64,000 bases of DNA from a phage: sequence record PQ724392.1, one strand, 5' to 3'. The first letter of the stretch is position 1, and each line of letters opens with the position of its first letter. The notes under the pieces are model-generated. The model worked only from the letters and a program-made list of their open reading frames with translations, did no database searches and had not been told where the DNA came from. A program made the position numbers and the translations under genes. Below are positions 6,364 through 31,397 of the stretch, piece after piece.

Positions 6364-6888
6364 TTATGCGAGAACCGTCTTTAAACGCTCTTCAAACTTC
6401 TGAAGGAGTACCTGGCGCTCTGCTCTTTGTTTGGTATAGGTTTCAATACGCTCTGAAGTGAGATTGTATTGTTCATTAACTGATTCCCTCATGAATTCAG
6501 GAATCTCTTTACATGCTTTGATTTCATTGAACTTATCAAGCACCGCTTGTTGTTCAGCAATCAGACCATCATAATATTGGATATCTGATTTGATGTTTTG
6601 TACATCAGATTCAGTAGGCATATTTTTCTTTGCTCTTGTCGCCTGATACTCAGCATTAGTCTCTCTTGACCAGAACAAAGAGCGGTTTTTATTGGTGTTT
6701 TTATACACATCAACAATACCAACTGAATCAACAGTCACAATCCAGTTCCAGGCGTTTTTATAAGTTTGACCGCCTGATACTGTAATCTCACCCGCACAAG
6801 CAACATCATTAAAGAACTTGCTTTGTGCTTCTGATTTAAAATTACCATTATTGTAATTAATCAGATTAAAGATTGATTTCGCTTCCAT
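6364..6888 (-). CDS. hypothetical protein
   Basis: 174-aa ORF preceded by conserved leader cassette. Confidence 0.55.
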   Translation of the reverse strand: MEAKSIFNLINYNNGNFKSEAQSKFFNDVACAGEITVSGGQTYKNAWNWIVTVDSVGIVDVYKNTNKNRSLFWSRETNAEYQATRAKKNMPTESDVQNIKSDIQYYDGLIAEQQAVLDKFNEIKACKEIPEFMRESVNEQYNLTSERIETYTKQRAERQVLLQKFEERLKTVLA

Positions 6889-6924
6889 TTTATTCTCCAG
6901 TATTTGGTAACTCAGTATGGGAAC

Positions 6925-6953
6925 ATTATACGTCTATCCCCATACCATGTACA
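6925..6953 (-). promoter_or_regulatory. early promoter (TGTACA, 17 nt, TATAAT) in conserved leader cassette
   Basis: minus-strand reading; about 37-nt leader to ATG. Confidence 0.5.
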
Positions 6954-6956
6954 CAT

Positions 6957-7259
6957 TTAATTAAAAGTTCTTTCAGTATTTTCACCGCTGAACCAGACGC
7001 TCTTAACGGCTTGCTGGGCGCGGTAGAGCTGCTCCGCCATATAAACACCAAGGGCCTCAGCTTTACGCGTTCTGTGAGCTTCTGCGGCGACCATTTGCAG
7101 CTTATCCATCATGATAAGAGCTTTACATTTCTCCTTCAGAGCATATCGCTTCTTCTCTTCTGGAGTTTTGACCATTCCTCTTAACTTGTGCATTTTCAAC
7201 TTAAAATGGTCAGCAGATTTCAGACATGCATCAATCATGTCAATTTCATACTTTTTCAT
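6957..7259 (-). CDS. hypothetical protein
   Basis: 100-aa ORF. Confidence 0.5.
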   Translation of the reverse strand: MKKYEIDMIDACLKSADHFKLKMHKLRGMVKTPEEKKRYALKEKCKALIMMDKLQMVAAEAHRTRKAEALGVYMAEQLYRAQQAVKSVWFSGENTERTFN

Positions 7260-7265
7260 AATTCC

Positions 7266-7472
7266 TCACTTGCGACGACGTTTTGGTAATGGTTTAGGGA
7301 AGAACATTGCTTTACCTGCAGGGGTTAAAGTCACACGCAAAGCATTACCAATACCAAGGGATGCTTTAACCAGACCTTTGGCTTTTAACTCACCAAATGC
7401 TTGACGTTGTTCAGGGTCACGAGTGTTAACCATCAGACCTTTTTCACCAGCAGCTTTGATTAATTCTAACAT
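7266..7472 (-). CDS. small basic hypothetical protein
   Basis: 68 aa, Lys/Arg-rich C-terminus. Confidence 0.5.
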   Translation of the reverse strand: MLELIKAAGEKGLMVNTRDPEQRQAFGELKAKGLVKASLGIGNALRVTLTPAGKAMFFPKPLPKRRRK

Positions 7473-7513
7473 TTTATTCTCCGTTTGTTTATTTGGTAAC
7501 TCAGTATGGAATC

Positions 7514-7542
7514 ATTATGCCTCATGACCATCTGGTTGTACA
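7514..7542 (-). promoter_or_regulatory. early promoter (TGTACA, 17 nt, CATAAT) in conserved leader cassette
   Basis: same architecture as cassette at 6925. Confidence 0.5.
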
Positions 7543-7589
7543 CATATACTAAATAAAAATACTTAATAAAACCATAAAGGAGAAAGTTT

Positions 7590-8336
7590 ATGATTTTATC
7601 CGGAAGAACTGTTGATGAACTCAATGAAAAAGTCCAGGCTGCCTTGGCTAATAATTGGTATTTGTTTGGTTCTACTATGGTGTTGCCGAATACTCCTACG
7701 GATAGCAAAGAGCGTTTTTTCCAAACTATGTCCAGCTCGGAAACTCAGATACCGGGCCCGCCTGGTCCAAAAGGAGACCCGGGTGTACCAGGACCAAAAG
7801 GAGACCCAGGCGGGGATGGAAAGTCTTCTTATCAGATATGGCTTGACTTGGGAAATACAGGAACTGTTGATGATTTTTTAACTGATACAGCAGGAAAGAG
7901 GGAAAAATCCGAGGTGTTTTGGAGTGGTATAAACGTTCTATTAACTAATGGTGTGACTTCAAACATAATTAGTATTTTAAAGGGGATTCCGCCGACTGCA
8001 GGGACTCTATCTCCGTTTTTTAGAACCACTGATGATAAGTTGTGGCCATATAACCAAGACAGAAGCCTAATGTTTAAACTCAACCTTATTGGTAATTTTA
8101 CAGGAGCCTCGCAAGCTCGAAGTATAACATTAAATTTCGTTGGAACCAACGGAAACACTTATATACAGAATCGTCCGGAAAATGCTACAGATATTTTGTC
8201 TTTTACAACGTTCTTTAGCATTGATAAAGATGGGGCAATGGCAACCAATGGTACAGCTATAACTGTTATGCCAAATGGCGGCAACTTTACAATAACCTCT
8301 GCATTGTTAGTAGCCGAACAAACAGTGACTTCATAA
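7590..8336 (+). CDS. collagen-like repeat protein with beta-rich C-terminal domain
   Basis: 248 aa; AAAGGAG RBS; GPPGPKGDPGVPGPKGDPGGDG Gly-X-Y run; only plus-strand gene in the early block. Confidence 0.7.
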   Translation: MILSGRTVDELNEKVQAALANNWYLFGSTMVLPNTPTDSKERFFQTMSSSETQIPGPPGPKGDPGVPGPKGDPGGDGKSSYQIWLDLGNTGTVDDFLTDTAGKREKSEVFWSGINVLLTNGVTSNIISILKGIPPTAGTLSPFFRTTDDKLWPYNQDRSLMFKLNLIGNFTGASQARSITLNFVGTNGNTYIQNRPENATDILSFTTFFSIDKDGAMATNGTAITVMPNGGNFTITSALLVAEQTVTS

Positions 8337-15628: not shown

Positions 15629-16087
15629 TTAGATATAAATCACTTTTGTGCTAATTTTTCCTTCCAGACGATTAGAGTTAACAAACGCCATACGACAACA
15701 CATGGTCGGAGACTTCCCAGGAATAGCGGGGTTAACTGTCATTCCTAACCACAGGTTCTTGTCTGTAATTTCCAGACGAAGTGGACGGTAGTTCACATTC
15801 GGGTCAATTTGTGCTTCAACTTCCGGGAGTGGTTTCATCTCCAAGAATTCAACGATTTCTTTTACATGTGGTGTGATTTTTCCAAACAAGTCAAAAACAT
15901 ATTGTTCATCAATTTCACGTTGGATTGCACGGTCCAACAGATGTGGACTGTACTTAATGAAGAATGCCTCAAGGCCTGCTTCTTTACAAGCCTTGTTGAT
16001 AGCATTATTAATTTTGAGGAACTCCGTTTCAAAAATGCGACGAAGTTTATTGCGGCGAATGTAAACACTTGAATCGATAGTAGTCAT
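15629..16087 (-). CDS. regB: Endoribonuclease RegB
   Basis: 152 aa from ATG 16087 (AAAGGAG RBS); strong similarity to remembered T4 RegB. Confidence 0.85.
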   Translation of the reverse strand: MTTIDSSVYIRRNKLRRIFETEFLKINNAINKACKEAGLEAFFIKYSPHLLDRAIQREIDEQYVFDLFGKITPHVKEIVEFLEMKPLPEVEAQIDPNVNYRPLRLEITDKNLWLGMTVNPAIPGKSPTMCCRMAFVNSNRLEGKISTKVIYI

Positions 16088-16114: not shown

Positions 16115-16143
16115 ATCATAACTCATTTCAATCTGCTTGTACA
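16115..16143 (-). promoter_or_regulatory. early promoter (TGTACA, 17 nt, TATGAT) upstream of regB
   Basis: minus-strand reading; -35 overlaps upstream stop codon. Confidence 0.45.
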
Positions 16144-17915: not shown

Positions 17916-18215
17916 TTAGAAAGAACCAGAGCCTTTAATTGTGTTCTGGCGACCTTTATTTTCTAATTCAGAATGGTCGATTTCATATGCTTGTGCTACG
18001 CCAAAGGCCTTTTTAACTTTAGCTAAAGAGCCTTTAGATGTGACAATATTAAAAGTATTGCCTTTAGTAAAATCAACCAAATCCACTTGTACACCCTGTT
18101 TACCGAGGCTTGCTACAATAGCATCAACATATTGTTGGTCTAAATTGCCCTGGACTCCGATTTGAAATGCTTTGGGAGCTTTGGCTTCAGTAATAAATTC
18201 TTGATACGTTTTCAT
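17916..18215 (-). CDS. internal-protein-like capsid-targeted protein
   Basis: MKTYQEFITE N-terminus matches the T4 internal-protein capsid targeting sequence. Confidence 0.6.
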   Translation of the reverse strand: MKTYQEFITEAKAPKAFQIGVQGNLDQQYVDAIVASLGKQGVQVDLVDFTKGNTFNIVTSKGSLAKVKKAFGVAQAYEIDHSELENKGRQNTIKGSGSF

Positions 18216-18263
18216 TTTATATTCCATTGTTTGGTTGATAAAATCATTATACAACCTTTTTAG

Positions 18264-18735: not shown

Positions 18736-19005
18736 TCATTTCTTAGAGTATTGACCCATAAGTTTAGCGATATCACCCAATTTCTGATTAAACAAATAAT
18801 CCACTTCTTTGCCAGATTTATCTACAATTTGCCACTGACCATTTCCTTTGTTGCCAAAGGTCCAATCACCAACTTTAAATGAAGTTCCATTAACTTTTTT
18901 AATAGAAGTAAACTCAAAGCCTTCTTTCTTAGCTAAAAATGCCATGCGGCTTTCATCTGATTCATTTAATACAGATTCAGCCAAAAATTCTTGATACGTT
19001 TTCAT
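18736..19005 (-). CDS. internal-protein-like capsid-targeted protein
   Basis: MKTYQEFLAE targeting sequence; directly downstream of lysozyme e. Confidence 0.65.
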   Translation of the reverse strand: MKTYQEFLAESVLNESDESRMAFLAKKEGFEFTSIKKVNGTSFKVGDWTFGNKGNGQWQIVDKSGKEVDYLFNQKLGDIAKLMGQYSKK

Positions 19006-22508: not shown

Positions 22509-22521
22509 AATATTTTCCTCA

Positions 22522-22689
22522 TTAGTAAAGACGAGTTACTTCATATTTTCCAAGTGCCGATTTTTTCGCTTCAATTCGTGAGGCAGCAAGATTGGCGGCC
22601 TCTAGTGAAGAAAATTGAACCACTTGAGAAGTATTCTGTCTTACTCCACCTTGCGGGTGAGTGACAAAAACAATAAAAACATTATACAT
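22522..22689 (-). CDS. small hypothetical protein (55 aa)
   Basis: hand-translated; GAGGAAAA RBS. Confidence 0.35.
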   Translation of the reverse strand: MYNVFIVFVTHPQGGVRQNTSQVVQFSSLEAANLAASRIEAKKSALGKYEVTRLY

Positions 22690-22699
22690 AATATTTTCC

Positions 22700-22900
22700 T
22701 CAAATAATACCGTATGCGTAAATATCTCTTTTAATGCAGGAAACTACTTCTTCCAGAGAATCACAAACACGTTCTGTGACGCCTGCGTAATCACCACTGA
22801 TGGTTACTTTAATGCCATCAGAAACTTCCTGGAGATTAACCTCCAGTTGGTTGACTTTGGCTTCGTTCAGAACTTTGATTAATTCGTTTGCGATAGACAT
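22700..22900 (-). CDS. hypothetical protein
   Basis: 66-aa ORF. Confidence 0.45.
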   Translation of the reverse strand: MSIANELIKVLNEAKVNQLEVNLQEVSDGIKVTISGDYAGVTERVCDSLEEVVSCIKRDIYAYGII

Positions 22901-22964
22901 TTTTATTCTCCTGTTCTGATAACGTGATTGTCATCAGTTGATAGGAGTATAGTAACACAGTTTT

Positions 22965-23294
22965 TTAGACTTGTATACTGCTTCTACAATATTCTAAAAA
23001 TAATTTATCGTTGTCTACCTTATCCCAACGACGCCAAGATGGATTCCAGACCAGAGCGTTGTCACCGCAATCATTGAGCTTAAAGTGGTCGTAGTACATA
23101 GCTATATGTCTGGTTTCGTCACCAGAGAACCCCAGTATATGCTCACCGTGGGTATGATACATATGATGATGCATTGAGAGGTCGCATTTGTAAAACATCT
23201 CACGTTTACCACGAACGAACAAGAAGGCTTGCCCATTCATATAGAATTCTTTATCTGTTTTCAAAAGATATTTGAATACCGAATCTTTATGCAT
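22965..23294 (-). CDS. His-rich hypothetical protein (possible metal binding)
   Basis: ATG 23294 with AGGAGG RBS; HHHMYHTHGEH cluster. Confidence 0.5.
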   Translation of the reverse strand: MHKDSVFKYLLKTDKEFYMNGQAFLFVRGKREMFYKCDLSMHHHMYHTHGEHILGFSGDETRHIAMYYDHFKLNDCGDNALVWNPSWRRWDKVDNDKLFLEYCRSSIQV

Positions 23295-23324
23295 AATTCC
23301 TCCTACCACATCCTTGTGATTAAA

Positions 23325-23552
23325 TTATTTTCCTAACGAAATACGAGTAGGTTTTTTACCGAAATATTCTTCATAGGAACCATCTAAACGACCCGCTTTA
23401 GACCGACAATACGAATCATACTTTTTGTAATAAGTCAACTCGTTATTATAACGTGGATGTCTATCAGCCATAATAATACTTAATGGCCAACCTTTGGCAT
23501 AATCACGAAGACCATTTATTTTACGAATATATCTTTTCTTTAATTTTAGCAT
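23325..23552 (-). CDS. small basic hypothetical protein
   Basis: 75-aa ORF. Confidence 0.45.
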   Translation of the reverse strand: MLKLKKRYIRKINGLRDYAKGWPLSIIMADRHPRYNNELTYYKKYDSYCRSKAGRLDGSYEEYFGKKPTRISLGK

Positions 23553-26428: not shown

Positions 26429-26500
26429 GGTATTTCCTTCAGTTGGTTAATGTTTTATTATCCAGGGAACATACTATCATGTTCCCATTAAAGCACTAAT

Positions 26501-26806
26501 TTAGATTTTGTTTTCCTGCACACCATAATAAAGTTCATCAGACACAATATCCAGGATGCGGCGAACATATTCATCATGGTATTGGCAGTCAAAATCAAAT
26601 GCAACAGTAGTTTCCGCTTCACGAGTGAATTTAACTTGCACATTCAGGTGATTAACAACGTTAGTTAATTTATCAGTAAAGAACTCTTTTGCTACCGCCT
26701 GTTGGACTTGCACTTTAAACTTGGTGTTACGAATCATATTTTCAGCAGATGCGAAATTACCAGTTTTATCAAAGTCAACAAGCGCCAGGTTGATGATGAA
26801 TTTCAT
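26501..26806 (-). CDS. hypothetical protein
   Basis: 101-aa ORF behind leader cassette. Confidence 0.5.
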   Translation of the reverse strand: MKFIINLALVDFDKTGNFASAENMIRNTKFKVQVQQAVAKEFFTDKLTNVVNHLNVQVKFTREAETTVAFDFDCQYHDEYVRRILDIVSDELYYGVQENKI

Positions 26807-26847
26807 TTTATTCTCCAGTGTTTTATTTGGTAACTCAGTATGGAATC

Positions 26848-26877
26848 ATTATGCCTTAAAGCAGGGGGCTTGTATAC
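26848..26877 (-). promoter_or_regulatory. early promoter with -35 (GTATACA) in hairpin loop (PeSL-like cassette)
   Basis: GGGGG..CCCCC hairpin, 17-18 nt, CATAAT, conserved leader. Confidence 0.5.
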
Positions 26878-26889
26878 CCCCTTTTTGAA

Positions 26890-27333
26890 TTAAATTTCAA
26901 ATTCTTTGCGGAAGTTGGAAGCATAAGACTGAACTGATGCTTTGTTGAATCCAAACTCACGCACAATCATATCAATAACAGCTCTGCGAGCAGCACCATT
27001 AGACATATTAACAGTTTTGAACATATCATAGCATAAATCTTTGTTGCTCATACCGGAGCGTTTAGGTGCCTTACGTTCAGCTTTTGGTTCAGCTTTAGGA
27101 GTAGGTTTAACTTCTGGTTTAACCTGTCCATCATTCAGACCTTTAAAAATTTTACCTGCCAGAGTTGCCAGTTTAGCAGCTTCGCCACGAGTGATACCAA
27201 ATACTGCCGGGTTAAATGAAATACCTTCAGCTGCCAGACGTTTGAAGAACATACGTGCTGCGGATTGTGCTTCAGCTTCAGAAGAGTTGTTTAATGCCAG
27301 CTTAACGTACTTAACCAGTTTTGAAGTTTTCAT
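26890..27333 (-). CDS. hypothetical protein, paralog of 27415-27840
   Basis: 147 aa; shared tail GAARRAVID...VQSYASNFRK. Confidence 0.55.
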   Translation of the reverse strand: MKTSKLVKYVKLALNNSSEAEAQSAARMFFKRLAAEGISFNPAVFGITRGEAAKLATLAGKIFKGLNDGQVKPEVKPTPKAEPKAERKAPKRSGMSNKDLCYDMFKTVNMSNGAARRAVIDMIVREFGFNKASVQSYASNFRKEFEI

Positions 27334-27373
27334 TTTATTCTCCAGTGTTTATTTGGTAACTCAGTATGGGATA

Positions 27374-27403
27374 ATTATACACTATCCCACCTGGAAGTAA
27401 AAC
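27374..27403 (-). promoter_or_regulatory. early promoter (GTTTTAC, 17 nt, TATAAT) in conserved leader cassette
   Basis: minus-strand reading; -10 within GGGATA..TATCCC hairpin. Confidence 0.5.
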
Positions 27404-27414
27404 ACTTTTCTCAA

Positions 27415-27840
27415 TTATTTTTGAGCTTTGCGGAAGTTGGAAGCATATGACTGAACAACAGTCTTTTTGATATCATGGGTGTTAACCAGAACATCAATCA
27501 GGGCGCGTCGAGCTGCACCATCTGCCATATCAATTTCTGCAAATGCCTGGAAGCAAATGTCACGAGCATTACCAGATTTAGACTGGATTTTTTCTTCTTT
27601 AACTTCTTCAATTGGGAATTCAATCATTTCAGCTTGGATTAATTCAATGATAGATTCTTTTGACTGTTTGGTGTTTACCTTCAGTTCAGAATTAAGGGAC
27701 TTAGCGATGGCAACAATCTGGGTTGAAGTCAGATGAATAAGTGCATCTTCACGAATGCAGATTTCACATACTTCGTCGGCAACCATTTTGTTAGTGATGC
27801 GGGTAACAGAGAATGCAGAAGTCAGGGTCAGGAAGTTCAT
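27415..27840 (-). CDS. hypothetical protein, paralog of 26890-27333
   Basis: ATG 27840 with GGAG RBS; shared C-terminal tail. Confidence 0.55.
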   Translation of the reverse strand: MNFLTLTSAFSVTRITNKMVADEVCEICIREDALIHLTSTQIVAIAKSLNSELKVNTKQSKESIIELIQAEMIEFPIEEVKEEKIQSKSGNARDICFQAFAEIDMADGAARRALIDVLVNTHDIKKTVVQSYASNFRKAQK

Positions 27841-27891
27841 TTTATTTCTCCAAAGTTTTGTTTGATTCAGTGTGTAACTCAGTATGGAATC

Positions 27892-27920
27892 ATTATGCAT
27901 CCAGTCAATTCGGATGTACA
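27892..27920 (-). promoter_or_regulatory. early promoter (TGTACA, 17 nt, CATAAT) in conserved leader cassette
   Basis: third copy of the conserved leader. Confidence 0.5.
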
Positions 27921-27958
27921 CTACTTTTTGAAGAAAATTTCAAATTTATTCGGGGTAT

Positions 27959-27980
27959 AAAAAAGCCCGCAATGCGGGCT
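27959..27980 (-). terminator. rho-independent terminator
   Basis: AGCCCGC..GCGGGCT hairpin followed by U-run on minus strand. Confidence 0.55.
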
Positions 27981-28536: not shown

Positions 28537-28560
28537 ACGTTTCTCTTTAGTTGATTTATA

Positions 28561-28587
28561 AAAAAGCCCCAACCTTTCGGAAGGGGC
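28561..28587 (-). terminator. rho-independent terminator
   Basis: GCCCC..GGGGC hairpin with U-run on minus strand. Confidence 0.5.
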
Positions 28588-29496: not shown

Positions 29497-29573
29497 TGGT
29501 CGGGGTGGTGGGATTCTAACCCACAACCTACGGTTTAGAAGACCGTTGCTCTATACAATTGAGCTACACCCCG
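29497..29573 (-). tRNA. tRNA-Arg (anticodon UCU), CCA encoded
   Basis: hand-folded cloverleaf: 7-bp acceptor, D-stem GCTC/GAGC, anticodon loop CTTCTAA, T-arm GTGGG-TTAGAAT-CCCAC. Confidence 0.8.
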
Positions 29574-29575
29574 GG

Positions 29576-29649
29576 TGGCCCCATCCGGACTTGAACCGGA
29601 AACCTGCCAGTTATGAGCCGGATGCTCTAACCAATTGAGCTACAGGGCC
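29576..29649 (-). tRNA. tRNA with CAU anticodon (Met or Ile-lysidine type)
   Basis: hand-folded cloverleaf: acceptor GGCCCTG/TGGGGCC, T-arm TCCGG-TTCAAGT-CCGGA; abuts tRNA-Arg. Confidence 0.75.
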
Positions 29650-30909: not shown

Positions 30910-31095
30910 TTACTCACCTTTGGAGATTTTATCCATAACGAAAGAGATTGAACCAATTAAAAATGCAACTACTAAAGAGATTATATTCTCAGAAGTTGAA
31001 AGCATATTCAACATAAAGCCAGCAAACATGCTAAAACCAAAAGCGGTAACAGCAACAAGGGCAGTAACATTTCTAATTAATTCGCAACGTTTCAT
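30910..31095 (-). CDS. small membrane protein
   Basis: 61 aa, 2 TM; GAGGAG RBS. Confidence 0.45.
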   Translation of the reverse strand: MKRCELIRNVTALVAVTAFGFSMFAGFMLNMLSTSENIISLVVAFLIGSISFVMDKISKGE

Positions 31096-31154
31096 TTTAT
31101 TCTCCTCAGTAGTTGATGGGATAATTATAATGCAGTTATCCCATCGCGTATACT

Positions 31155-31397
31155 TTATTTTAAGTCTTCCAGACGTTTTTTCATCTTGGTGCCGTTCTTA
31201 GCAATCTCGCCTGCATCGGAACAAAGAGCAAGGAGAGCTTTAACTTTACCCTGGTCGCCTTTAAAAGATGATGCATCTACTGAATCAGCAAGTTCTTTGA
31301 TACGTGCAAACAGGCGCTCTGCTTCAGCAAGGGCTTGACCAAGTTTAACTTCCATACCATGAGAAGATTCTGTTATAAATGTTTGATAAGTTTTCAT
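31155..31397 (-). CDS. internal-protein-like capsid-targeted protein
   Basis: MKTYQTFITES targeting-like N-terminus. Confidence 0.55.
   Translation of the reverse strand: MKTYQTFITESSHGMEVKLGQALAEAERLFARIKELADSVDASSFKGDQGKVKALLALCSDAGEIAKNGTKMKKRLEDLK

Follow-up and report, generated by a model that had tools for sequence, protein, structure and literature searches.

The 64,000-nucleotide stretch of phage DNA analyzed here (sequence record PQ724392.1, referred to below as the window) contains a family of short minus-strand elements, among them three direct copies that we call cassettes A, B, and C. These elements very likely represent self-contained early-expression modules of the promoter early stem-loop (PeSL) type, each of which combines a promoter, a leader, a putative target site for the endoribonuclease RegB and ribosomal protein S1, and homology for recombination. 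The window is T4-type coliphage DNA of the genus Gaprivervirus (Straboviridae, Tevenvirinae; SP18/VR7 group), and the 1.7-kb region with the cassettes had its top match in Escherichia phage pEC-M719-6WT.2 (99.4%), followed by SP18, VR7, VR20, VR26, and the TH series. All three cassettes lie in a variable block that extends from e.6 to the tRNA genes and in which all genes are on the minus strand. A match to the PeSL cassettes of T4-type phages had already been proposed in a preliminary description of this DNA, and all physical features of PeSLs that can be examined at the sequence level were indeed found.

The same description had placed the element at 26807-26881, 27334-27403, and 27841-27920, to be read on the minus strand. 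All three copies are present there, as a repeat family (D1) of direct minus-strand copies of 31 nucleotides (nt) that are 87 to 100% identical and spaced at 526 and 518 bp, but the family is larger than three: a 14-nt core (CCATACTGAGTTAC) has five exact occurrences in the window, all on the minus strand (at 6907, 7496, 26830, 27356, and 27874). When up to three mismatches were allowed, the core had 16 matches, versus 4.2 expected, and none of 100 shuffled versions of the window reached 16; the shuffles rule out chance or low-complexity repetition as the origin of the family. The five copies head five different open reading frames (ORFs), of 174, 68, 101, 147, and 141 amino acids (aa) (Table 1).

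Alignment of all copies, a check that had been recommended at the outset, confirmed the reported layout of a -35, a 17-nt spacer, a -10, and a leader with a ribosome-binding site, which in the copies takes the form -35/N17/-10/leader/GGAG/ATG. Conservation is highest between the -10 and the ATG, with the -35 and the sequence upstream of it being more variable. Read on the minus strand, an AT-rich stretch is followed by a -35-like GTGTACA, GTTTTAC, or GTATACA, the 17-nt spacer, and a -10 of CATAAT or TATAAT, after which come six bases ending in CC, the invariant ATACTGAGTTAC, an A-rich linker of 8 to 22 nt, GGAGAATAAA, and ATG; the core CCATACTGAGTTAC is invariant at about -2 to +12 in each copy. 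In a test at the sequence level, the hexamers TGTACA, TTTACT, and TATACA were found at N16-17 from CATAAT or TATAAT, with an AAAAAG-type block upstream. A position weight matrix (PWM) of the promoter part alone (-34 to +6), built on 22 SP18 sites, yielded 11 hits in the window; every one of them is on the minus strand, within the 4.3- to 32.4-kb interval, and the late-gene half has none, compared to 0 to 3 hits on both strands of shuffled sequence. The -35/-10 consensus of the cassettes is close to that of the PeSL promoter of T4/PST (TTTACW-N17-TAYWAT) and also fits T4 early promoters, which have been described as UP/-35/-10 promoters with extra conserved positions. A scan of the promoters reported no extended -10 (TGn); the TG that is present directly abuts the hexamer, in a non-canonical register. 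We infer that the cassettes are early promoters, and we infer their strength and activity in the same way. Host sigma70 RNA polymerase would read the AT-rich/-35 block (consensus AAAAAGTAGTGTACA), the 17-nt spacer, and the -10 CATAAT or TATAAT and would start at the A of CCATAC, seven bases past the -10; standard sigma70 geometry predicts these start sites at 26841, 27367, and 27885.

In SP18, a profile search located this leader class at 13 places, upstream of srd, gp040, nrdC.8, gp097, gp131, gp146-148, gp189, 30.8, frd.1, gp274, and gp281. Every copy is on the early strand, in a region that is variable and non-essential. Like the five copies in the window, all 13 are located between minus-strand early genes, and the regions that hold copies are nrdC, e.6-tRNA, 30.x, frd, motA, ndd-denB, and a lone minus-strand ORF between gp23 and gp24. 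This ORF, gp189, would be driven by a class-1 cassette (SP18 105982-106022, minus strand) that represents an early cassette within a conserved structural module, gp23 and gp24 being late genes. BLAST searches returned 9 to 13 copies per genome in about 35 Gaprivervirus genomes and single or few copies of the cassette outside that genus. The frd.1 orthologues of Dhakavirus IME341 and of Gualtarvirus MP1 and PSTRCR_127 have retained the first 22 bases of the leader, the -10, and the -35 block but not the spacer; between MP1 and SP18, a hand count gave 21/22 identical positions in the leader and 9/17 in the spacer. A second leader class, ATCAACTACTGAGGAGAATAAAATG, heads an internal-protein gene cluster at 31.1 kb in the window and was found in 733 phage records across T4-like genera.

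The 3' end of the leader contains what might be a second signal. RegB, together with ribosomal protein S1, needs an 11-nt single-stranded site with the consensus sequence GGAGRAYARAA, of which GGAGAAUAAAA is the T4 optimum (Durand et al. 2006, PMC1702504), and a resistant RNA becomes a RegB substrate when AAUAAAA is grafted after its GGAG (PMC1702504). Four of the five cassettes (the 6907 and 7496 copies, A, and B) end exactly in GGAGAATAAAA, the last A of which is the A of the ATG, and GGAG is found 6 to 7 nt before the ATG in all five copies. The window has six perfect RegB/S1 sites where 0.39 would be expected; each is a minus-strand site that ends on a start codon, and four belong to class-1 cassettes. 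The regB gene itself is situated behind an early promoter of the same design as the cassettes (-10 at 16120). The transcript would open with the invariant AUACUGAGUUAC, pass through the A-rich linker of 8 to 22 nt, and close with GGAGAAUAAA-AUG, in a leader predicted to be unstructured, and its last 11 nt would be the Shine-Dalgarno (SD) sequence and would at the same time reproduce exactly the optimal, single-stranded RegB/S1 target. Strong translation directly after infection would then be followed by functional inactivation as phage-encoded RegB builds up. Since the SD sequence likely doubles as a RegB/S1 site, at which we presume cleavage to occur, cassette-driven genes would be expressed in a short early pulse. 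The sixth perfect GGAGAATAAAA site in the window (22901-22911, minus strand) also ends on a start codon and has no strong PWM promoter upstream; the segment around it (22521-23541) is replaced in TH15, TH40, TH44, and TH54.

The preliminary description had also mentioned a hairpin overlapping the -35 or the -10. Such a hairpin is present, and its position varies: it lies over the -35 in A, around the -10 in B and in the 6907 and 7496 copies, and from the -35 to the -10 in C. In the type that encloses the -10, the 3' arm is formed by the promoter's own -6 to +6 region and the 5' arm is in the spacer, and the arm regions differ among promoters (TTCCCATACT, GGTCCCAC, GACCCTATC, and GTTCCTACAC). 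When covariation was tested on 11 promoters, native pairs of spacer and downstream region had a mean energy of -9.28 kcal/mol, compared to -4.91 kcal/mol for chimeras in which one promoter's spacer was joined to the downstream region of another. Because none of 5000 permutations reached the native pairing energy, the -10-enclosing stem-loop is a selected feature. Its 5' arm precedes the start site, so that the cassette's own transcript cannot fold into it; its formation is limited to read-through RNA or single-stranded DNA. On read-through RNA from the upstream gene, it would probably act as an attenuator or a 3'-end barrier, by analogy with the role proposed for PeSLs. Upstream of cassette C, the terminator-like hairpin that closes the DUF7338 gene (Table 1) has GGGCTTTTTTATA in common with a second terminator (28546-28569).

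Further evidence came from a comparison with 12 relatives, in which gene content between e.6 and the tRNA genes varies gene by gene. This comparison, likewise recommended earlier, revealed gain and loss of genes at cassettes as well as chimeric cassette copies, and synteny breakpoints, which the preliminary description had named along with transcription starts as bearing on its reading, were found at cassettes A and B and at the 7.5-kb copy. At the B locus, six relatives (YenP8, P896, TH54, TH57, TH22, and TH44) have a 98-aa ORF between two tandem cassettes, which we term U (upstream) and D (downstream). Genomes without this ORF have one chimeric cassette, of either of two kinds: in SP18, RZ, TH15, and TH40, the U promoter is combined with the linker and SD sequence of D, with the crossover located within ACTGAGTTACCAAATAAA; the window and EAWsc9 have U throughout, which places the crossover in the last ~9 nt before the ATG or at the ATG. 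The junction overlap is 46 to 48 nt, and the corresponding window positions (27331-27378) are the leader of cassette B itself. Given the different crossover points of the two kinds of chimera, at least two independent events are indicated within this leader, in agreement with the PeSL model, where a single chimeric copy stays behind after excision or integration.

Other junctions involve cassettes or their surroundings in a similar manner. In RZ, which lacks the 101-aa ORF, a common TGGAxAATAAAA joins the 3' end of the cassette A leader to the e.6 leader, and in SP18, TH54, and P896, which lack the 184-aa DUF7338 gene between the two terminators, the junction is in the shared terminator sequence. 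Five relatives have indel breakpoints within the promoter of the 7.5-kb copy, at 7518 and 7543, and the second cassette class (31090-31129) shows a 40- to 55-nt junction overlap, with insertions of 240 to 605 bp in TH22, TH44, and TH40. The block of ~50 nt from the -10 to the ATG, near-identical at many loci, thus offers portable homology, and a crossover of two direct cassettes deletes or inserts the gene between them, with one chimeric cassette remaining. The geometry also permits excised mini-circles, each with one ORF and one chimeric cassette, as the 147-aa and 141-aa ORFs are each located between direct cassettes 518 to 526 bp apart.

Several observations weigh against reading the cassettes as PeSL-type modules, in particular as the recombination hot spots that, according to the preliminary description, PeSLs are reported to be. 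In a breakpoint survey of positions 1 to 34.5 kb of the window against 7 relatives, in which indels and replacements were counted from 80 bp upward, we found 40 distinct events, nearly all at gene boundaries. The two longest junction homologies (48 and 40 to 55 nt) were the two cassette leaders, but cassette boundaries were not enriched, with breakpoints at 7/13 of them versus 40/74 other boundaries (odds ratio of 0.99; Fisher p = 1.0), in a comparison that has low power and rests on crude gene calls. Other indels make use of the capsid-targeting codons of internal-protein genes (32 to 45 nt), the T-runs of terminators (13 nt), or start/stop overlaps of 7 to 10 nt. Hence, the cassettes are a real recombination substrate, one among several, and neither dominant nor preferential here. 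As for the regulatory signals, the putative RegB/S1 site of cassette C (GGAGAAATAAA) matches 9 of the 11 consensus positions and thus differs at 2; a canonical T-run follows only the hairpin at 27980-27964, the U-tail of A being weak and the hairpin of B being followed by AGUUACC; and the invariant box at +1 to +12 is without an assigned function. Finally, between relatives within the genus, leader sites differ at 0.044 per site, compared to 0.061 for the remaining intergenic DNA and 0.139 for the third positions of codons, the sites not being phylogenetically independent. Since other intergenic DNA evolves slowly as well, conservation of the leader within the genus is unexceptional.

That box invites a further speculation. 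It is possible, if rather unlikely, that the sequence at about -2 to +12 (CC-AUACUGAGUUA) is a functional signal in its own right and that the covarying hairpin, which pairs it with the spacer, is a designed 3'-end barrier. As a signal of its own, the box could be an initial-transcribed or 5'-end element recognized by a factor of the phage or the host or by RNA polymerase, and it could set promoter escape, the chemistry of the 5' end, or what becomes of immediate-early mRNA, while the hairpin may shield the upstream cistron after a RegB cut in the downstream leader. Such a function is supported by the identity of the box at 13 loci per genome and by its retention in frd.1 orthologues from Gaprivervirus, Dhakavirus, and Gualtarvirus, three genera between which the promoter spacer diverges. 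If the box is indeed a signal, it is more than hitch-hiking homology.

Two of the genes flanked by cassettes, those encoding the 147-aa and 141-aa proteins, had been described as paralogs with the same C-terminal 35 aa. They do have a C-terminal domain in common (44% identity over 73 aa; E 2e-18), which is also common to PHROG families 18416, 9997, and 17275, but only some 10 residues (VQSYASNFRK) are identical, and the N-terminal halves are unrelated. A 31-nt coding stretch (...VQSYASNFRK; 26904-26934 and 27426-27456, minus strand) is identical at 30 of 31 positions, with the proteins being only 44% identical over the domain, which points to a conversion patch of recent date or to constraint on the nucleotide sequence. 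One might ask whether plain tandem segmental duplication, in which a gene is copied along with its promoter and paralogs result, could account for the arrangement with neither cassette mobility nor cassette-mediated recombination. We consider this improbable. Cassettes C and B do precede the two paralogs, B and A are each found just downstream of a paralog, inside a ~134-nt repeat (79% identity) that takes in the coding end of the C-terminal domain and the near-identical stretch, and the period is regular (518 to 526 bp). However, cassette A heads a 101-aa ORF unrelated to the paralogs, the paralogs themselves differ in their N-terminal halves, two further copies are located ~20 kb away before unrelated genes, and SP18 has 13 copies distributed along 160 kb; moreover, the same leader occurs in other genera, and relatives have chimeric cassettes with different crossovers. 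A further hint is that B has TATCCCAT, like the 6907-type copy, and that A and C have GATTCCAT, like the 7496 copy. We rejected tandem duplication as the whole explanation because the cassette also stands before distant, unrelated genes and in other genera; duplication could account for part of the B/C arrangement but not for the family. Local duplication probably contributed to the B/A arrangement as well, leaving the distant copies unexplained.

Pfam searches returned nothing for the 101-, 147-, 141-, 127-, 174-, and 68-aa ORFs, and PHROGs returned only families of unknown function for five of these six and none for the 127-aa ORF; one GenBank record has the labels "H15" and "rho-N," which Pfam did not reproduce.

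A second alternative, which we regard as very improbable, is that functional constraint alone made the copies converge, their similarity then reflecting the necessary hexamers, start context, and RegB/S1 and SD sequences, without common descent or any role in recombination. In line with this, the best-conserved parts are known signals (the -35 block, the -10, and GGAGAAUAAAA), these elements are kept across genera while the spacer drifts, and breakpoints are not enriched at cassettes. Convergence alone, however, does not predict at least two discrete leader classes (beginning with AUACUGAGUUAC and AUCAACUACUGAGGAG), there is no known requirement for the 12-nt box at +1 or for the linker, and the 40- to 48-nt junction overlaps and the two types of chimera show that copies recombine together. 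Lastly, a structured cis-regulatory RNA (riboswitch, attenuator, or small RNA) or a micro-ORF in the leader, suggested by the strong conservation of this 5' untranslated region, seen at many loci and beyond a single genus, is scarcely credible and was rejected, since shuffled versions fold more stably than the leader (taken from the predicted start to +30 of the ORF; z of +0.5 to +2.0) and no Rfam family reached its threshold (the sub-threshold matches were STnc370, with 36.7 versus 54 bits, on the plus strand over the terminator, and Trp_leader, with 20.5 versus 41 bits), and since the leader is only ~30 to 45 nt long, has a linker of varying length (8 to 22 nt), contains no ORF, and takes part in covarying structure only together with sequence upstream of the predicted start; RNA structure thus does not explain its conservation.

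The PeSL reading can be compared with systems described previously. PeSLs have been described for RB49/phi1 (Arbiol et al. 2010, PMC2839356) and for T4/PST and KVP40/nt-1 (Comeau et al. 2014, PMC4122927), and PeSL-like sequences have been mentioned in JS98; in the literature consulted, we found no description of PeSLs or promoters for the Gaprivervirus/SP18 group and no transcriptome or reporter data for the genus. Like PeSLs, the cassettes are intergenic, lie in hyperplastic regions before ORFs of unknown function, and occur as tandem copies around single ORFs; they have an AT-rich stretch, a sigma70-like -35/N17/-10, a stem-loop at a variable place, and an SD sequence and ATG at the 3' end. 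Both account for dozens of the early promoters in a genome, and in both, relatives without the flanked ORF have one chimeric copy. Unlike in published PeSLs, which were aligned mainly on the promoter and SD sequence, the longest conserved block in the window is the transcribed leader (~50 nt from the -10 to the ATG), and whereas the published hot-spot argument was made from proximity, our boundary test gives no enrichment at cassettes. Promoter, terminator, and mini-circle assays exist for RB49/phi1; the Gaprivervirus cassettes are known here from sequence.

With regard to the RegB/S1 sites of T4 (PMC1702504), the likeness lies in the exact T4 optimum GGAGAAUAAAA at the end of four of five cassettes, where it is placed as an early gene's SD sequence and the leader around it is predicted to be single-stranded, and in a phage that encodes RegB. 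The sites of cassette C (GGAGAAAUAAA) and of the downstream copy in relatives (GGAUAAUAAAA) differ in being off the optimum, and cleavage is a prediction here; a site of the GGAUAAUAAAA type is cut only if a strict A-rich tail follows (PMC1702504). The flanks of T-even internal-protein genes (Repoila et al. 1994, cited in PMC4122927) similarly consist of conserved regulatory and N-terminal sequences around variable genes, and the second class in the window (31090-31129) heads a cluster of this sort, in which the leader and the MKTYQEF... codons serve as junction homologies for gene swaps. That class differs in its leader (AUCAACUACUGAGGAG) and is far wider spread, its 733 records including Tequatrovirus and phages of Klebsiella, Yersinia, and Aeromonas, whereas the class of cassettes A to C is largely restricted to one genus, with single copies elsewhere.

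Table 1. Coordinates of the cassettes, the ORFs that they flank, and associated features
Feature	Position	Strand	Description
Cassette A	26804..26887	minus	Heads 101-aa ORF (26501-26806); AT-rich block; PWM score 29.0
Cassette A, -35 TATACA	26876-26871	minus	Inside hairpin GGGGG/CCCCC (26882-26863)
Cassette A, -10 CATAAT	26853-26848	minus	
Cassette A, predicted +1	26841	minus	
Cassette A, core CCATACTGAGTTAC	26843-26830	minus	
Cassette A, RegB/S1-type site GGAGAATAAAA	26816-26806	minus	
Cassette A, ATG	26806-26804	minus	
Cassette B	27331..27413	minus	Heads 147-aa ORF (26890-27333); chimeric copy; PWM score 28.2
Cassette B, -35 GTTTTAC/TTTACT	27401-27396	minus	
Cassette B, -10 TATAAT	27379-27374	minus	
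Cassette B, hairpin around -10	27393-27362	minus	10+3 bp, -14.9 kcal/mol
Cassette B, predicted +1	27367	minus	
Cassette B, core	27369-27356	minus	
Cassette B, GGAGAATAAAA	27343-27333	minus	
Cassette B, ATG	27333-27331	minus	
Cassette C	27838..27931	minus	Heads 141-aa ORF (27415-27840); AAAAAGTAGTGTACA block; longer linker; PWM score 38.1
Cassette C, -35 TGTACA	27920-27915	minus	
Cassette C, hairpin	27920-27894	minus	
Cassette C, -10 CATAAT	27897-27892	minus	
Cassette C, predicted +1	27885	minus	
Cassette C, core	27887-27874	minus	
Cassette C, GGAGAAATAAA	27851-27841	minus	
Cassette C, ATG	27840-27838	minus	
Fourth copy	6886..6964	minus	Heads nrdC.8 homologue (174 aa, 6364-6888); 12-bp hairpin around -10, -15.7 kcal/mol; PWM score 26.8
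Fourth copy, -10 TATAAT	6930-6925	minus	
Fourth copy, core	6920-6907	minus	
Fourth copy, GGAGAATAAAA	6898-6888	minus	
Fifth copy	7470..7553	minus	Heads 68-aa ORF (7266-7472); PWM score 20.3
Fifth copy, -10 CATAAT	7519-7514	minus	
Fifth copy, core	7509-7496	minus	
Fifth copy, GGAGAATAAAA	7482-7472	minus	
Second-class cassette TATAATTATCCCATCAACTACTGAGGAGAATAAAATG	31090-31165	minus	Heads 61-aa ORF, internal-protein region
Upstream copy U			Six relatives; GTTTTAC...TATAAT TATCCCAT...AAAACACTGGAGAATAAAATG
Downstream copy D			Six relatives; GTGTACTTT...CATAAT GATTCCAT...AAACAAACGGGATAATAAAATG
101-aa ORF	26501..26806	minus	phrog_7474; no relation to paralogs; putatively driven by cassette A; absent from phage RZ
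147-aa ORF	26890..27333	minus	phrog_18416; between cassettes B and A, direct orientation
141-aa ORF	27415..27840	minus	phrog_9997; between cassettes C and B, direct orientation
Intrinsic-terminator-like hairpin AGCCCGCATTGCGGGCT, then T-run	27958..27980 (hairpin 27980-27964)	minus	Closes upstream DUF7338 gene ~40 nt before cassette C
regB, GGAG-specific endoribonuclease	15629-16087	minus	PF10715, E 2.2e-72

Some neighboring features of the window deserve mention. Three small minus-strand ORFs (17916-18215, 18736-19005, and 31155-31397) start with MKTYQEF(I/L)..., like the capsid-targeting sequence of T4 internal proteins, and two of the three match PHROG families annotated as "internal head protein." The MKTYQEF codons provide 14- to 45-nt junction homologies for gene swaps between relatives (18186-18217, 18733|19021, and 31397|31729). 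Directly upstream of the 7.5-kb cassette, in an otherwise minus-strand early region, is a plus-strand ORF of 248 aa (7590-8336; phrog_1030, E 1.8e-67) that has collagen-like GPPGPKGDPG repeats and, at its C-terminus, resembles a tail-needle knob; it is absent from SP18, TH22, TH44, TH15, and TH57. Upstream of e.6 (26429-26500, minus strand), we found a MotA-box-like middle promoter (TGCTTTA, 12 nt, TAGTAT) with a perfect 8-bp hairpin (GGGAACAT/ATGTTCCC) around its -10 and a degenerate half-leader (CTGGATAATAAAA); at this site, P896 has GTTTACA, an early-type -35, instead, beside an extra 132-aa ORF. Finally, two adjacent tRNA genes (29500-29649, minus strand) were recognized by Rfam (73.7 and 62.2 bits), at a locus where the number and identity of tRNAs vary: there are three in SP18, whereas no tRNA is annotated for RZ in the stretch compared.

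This case adds the exact RegB/S1 site in the cassette, the covariation test of the stem-loop, the invariant box at +1 to +12 across genera, and the two independent crossovers in one cassette. The PeSL cassette and the optimal RegB/S1 site, which had been described separately, are joined in one module, and this predicts a pulse of immediate-early expression. The absence of enrichment tempers the idea of a hot spot, as more than half of the gene boundaries in the hyperplastic region are breakpoints. In the annotation of Gaprivervirus genomes, early promoters and true start codons can be reliably recognized by the cassette. With two independent crossovers in one 50-nt cassette leading to the same gene loss, it provides a base-resolved example of how small accessory genes are swapped in T4-type phages.

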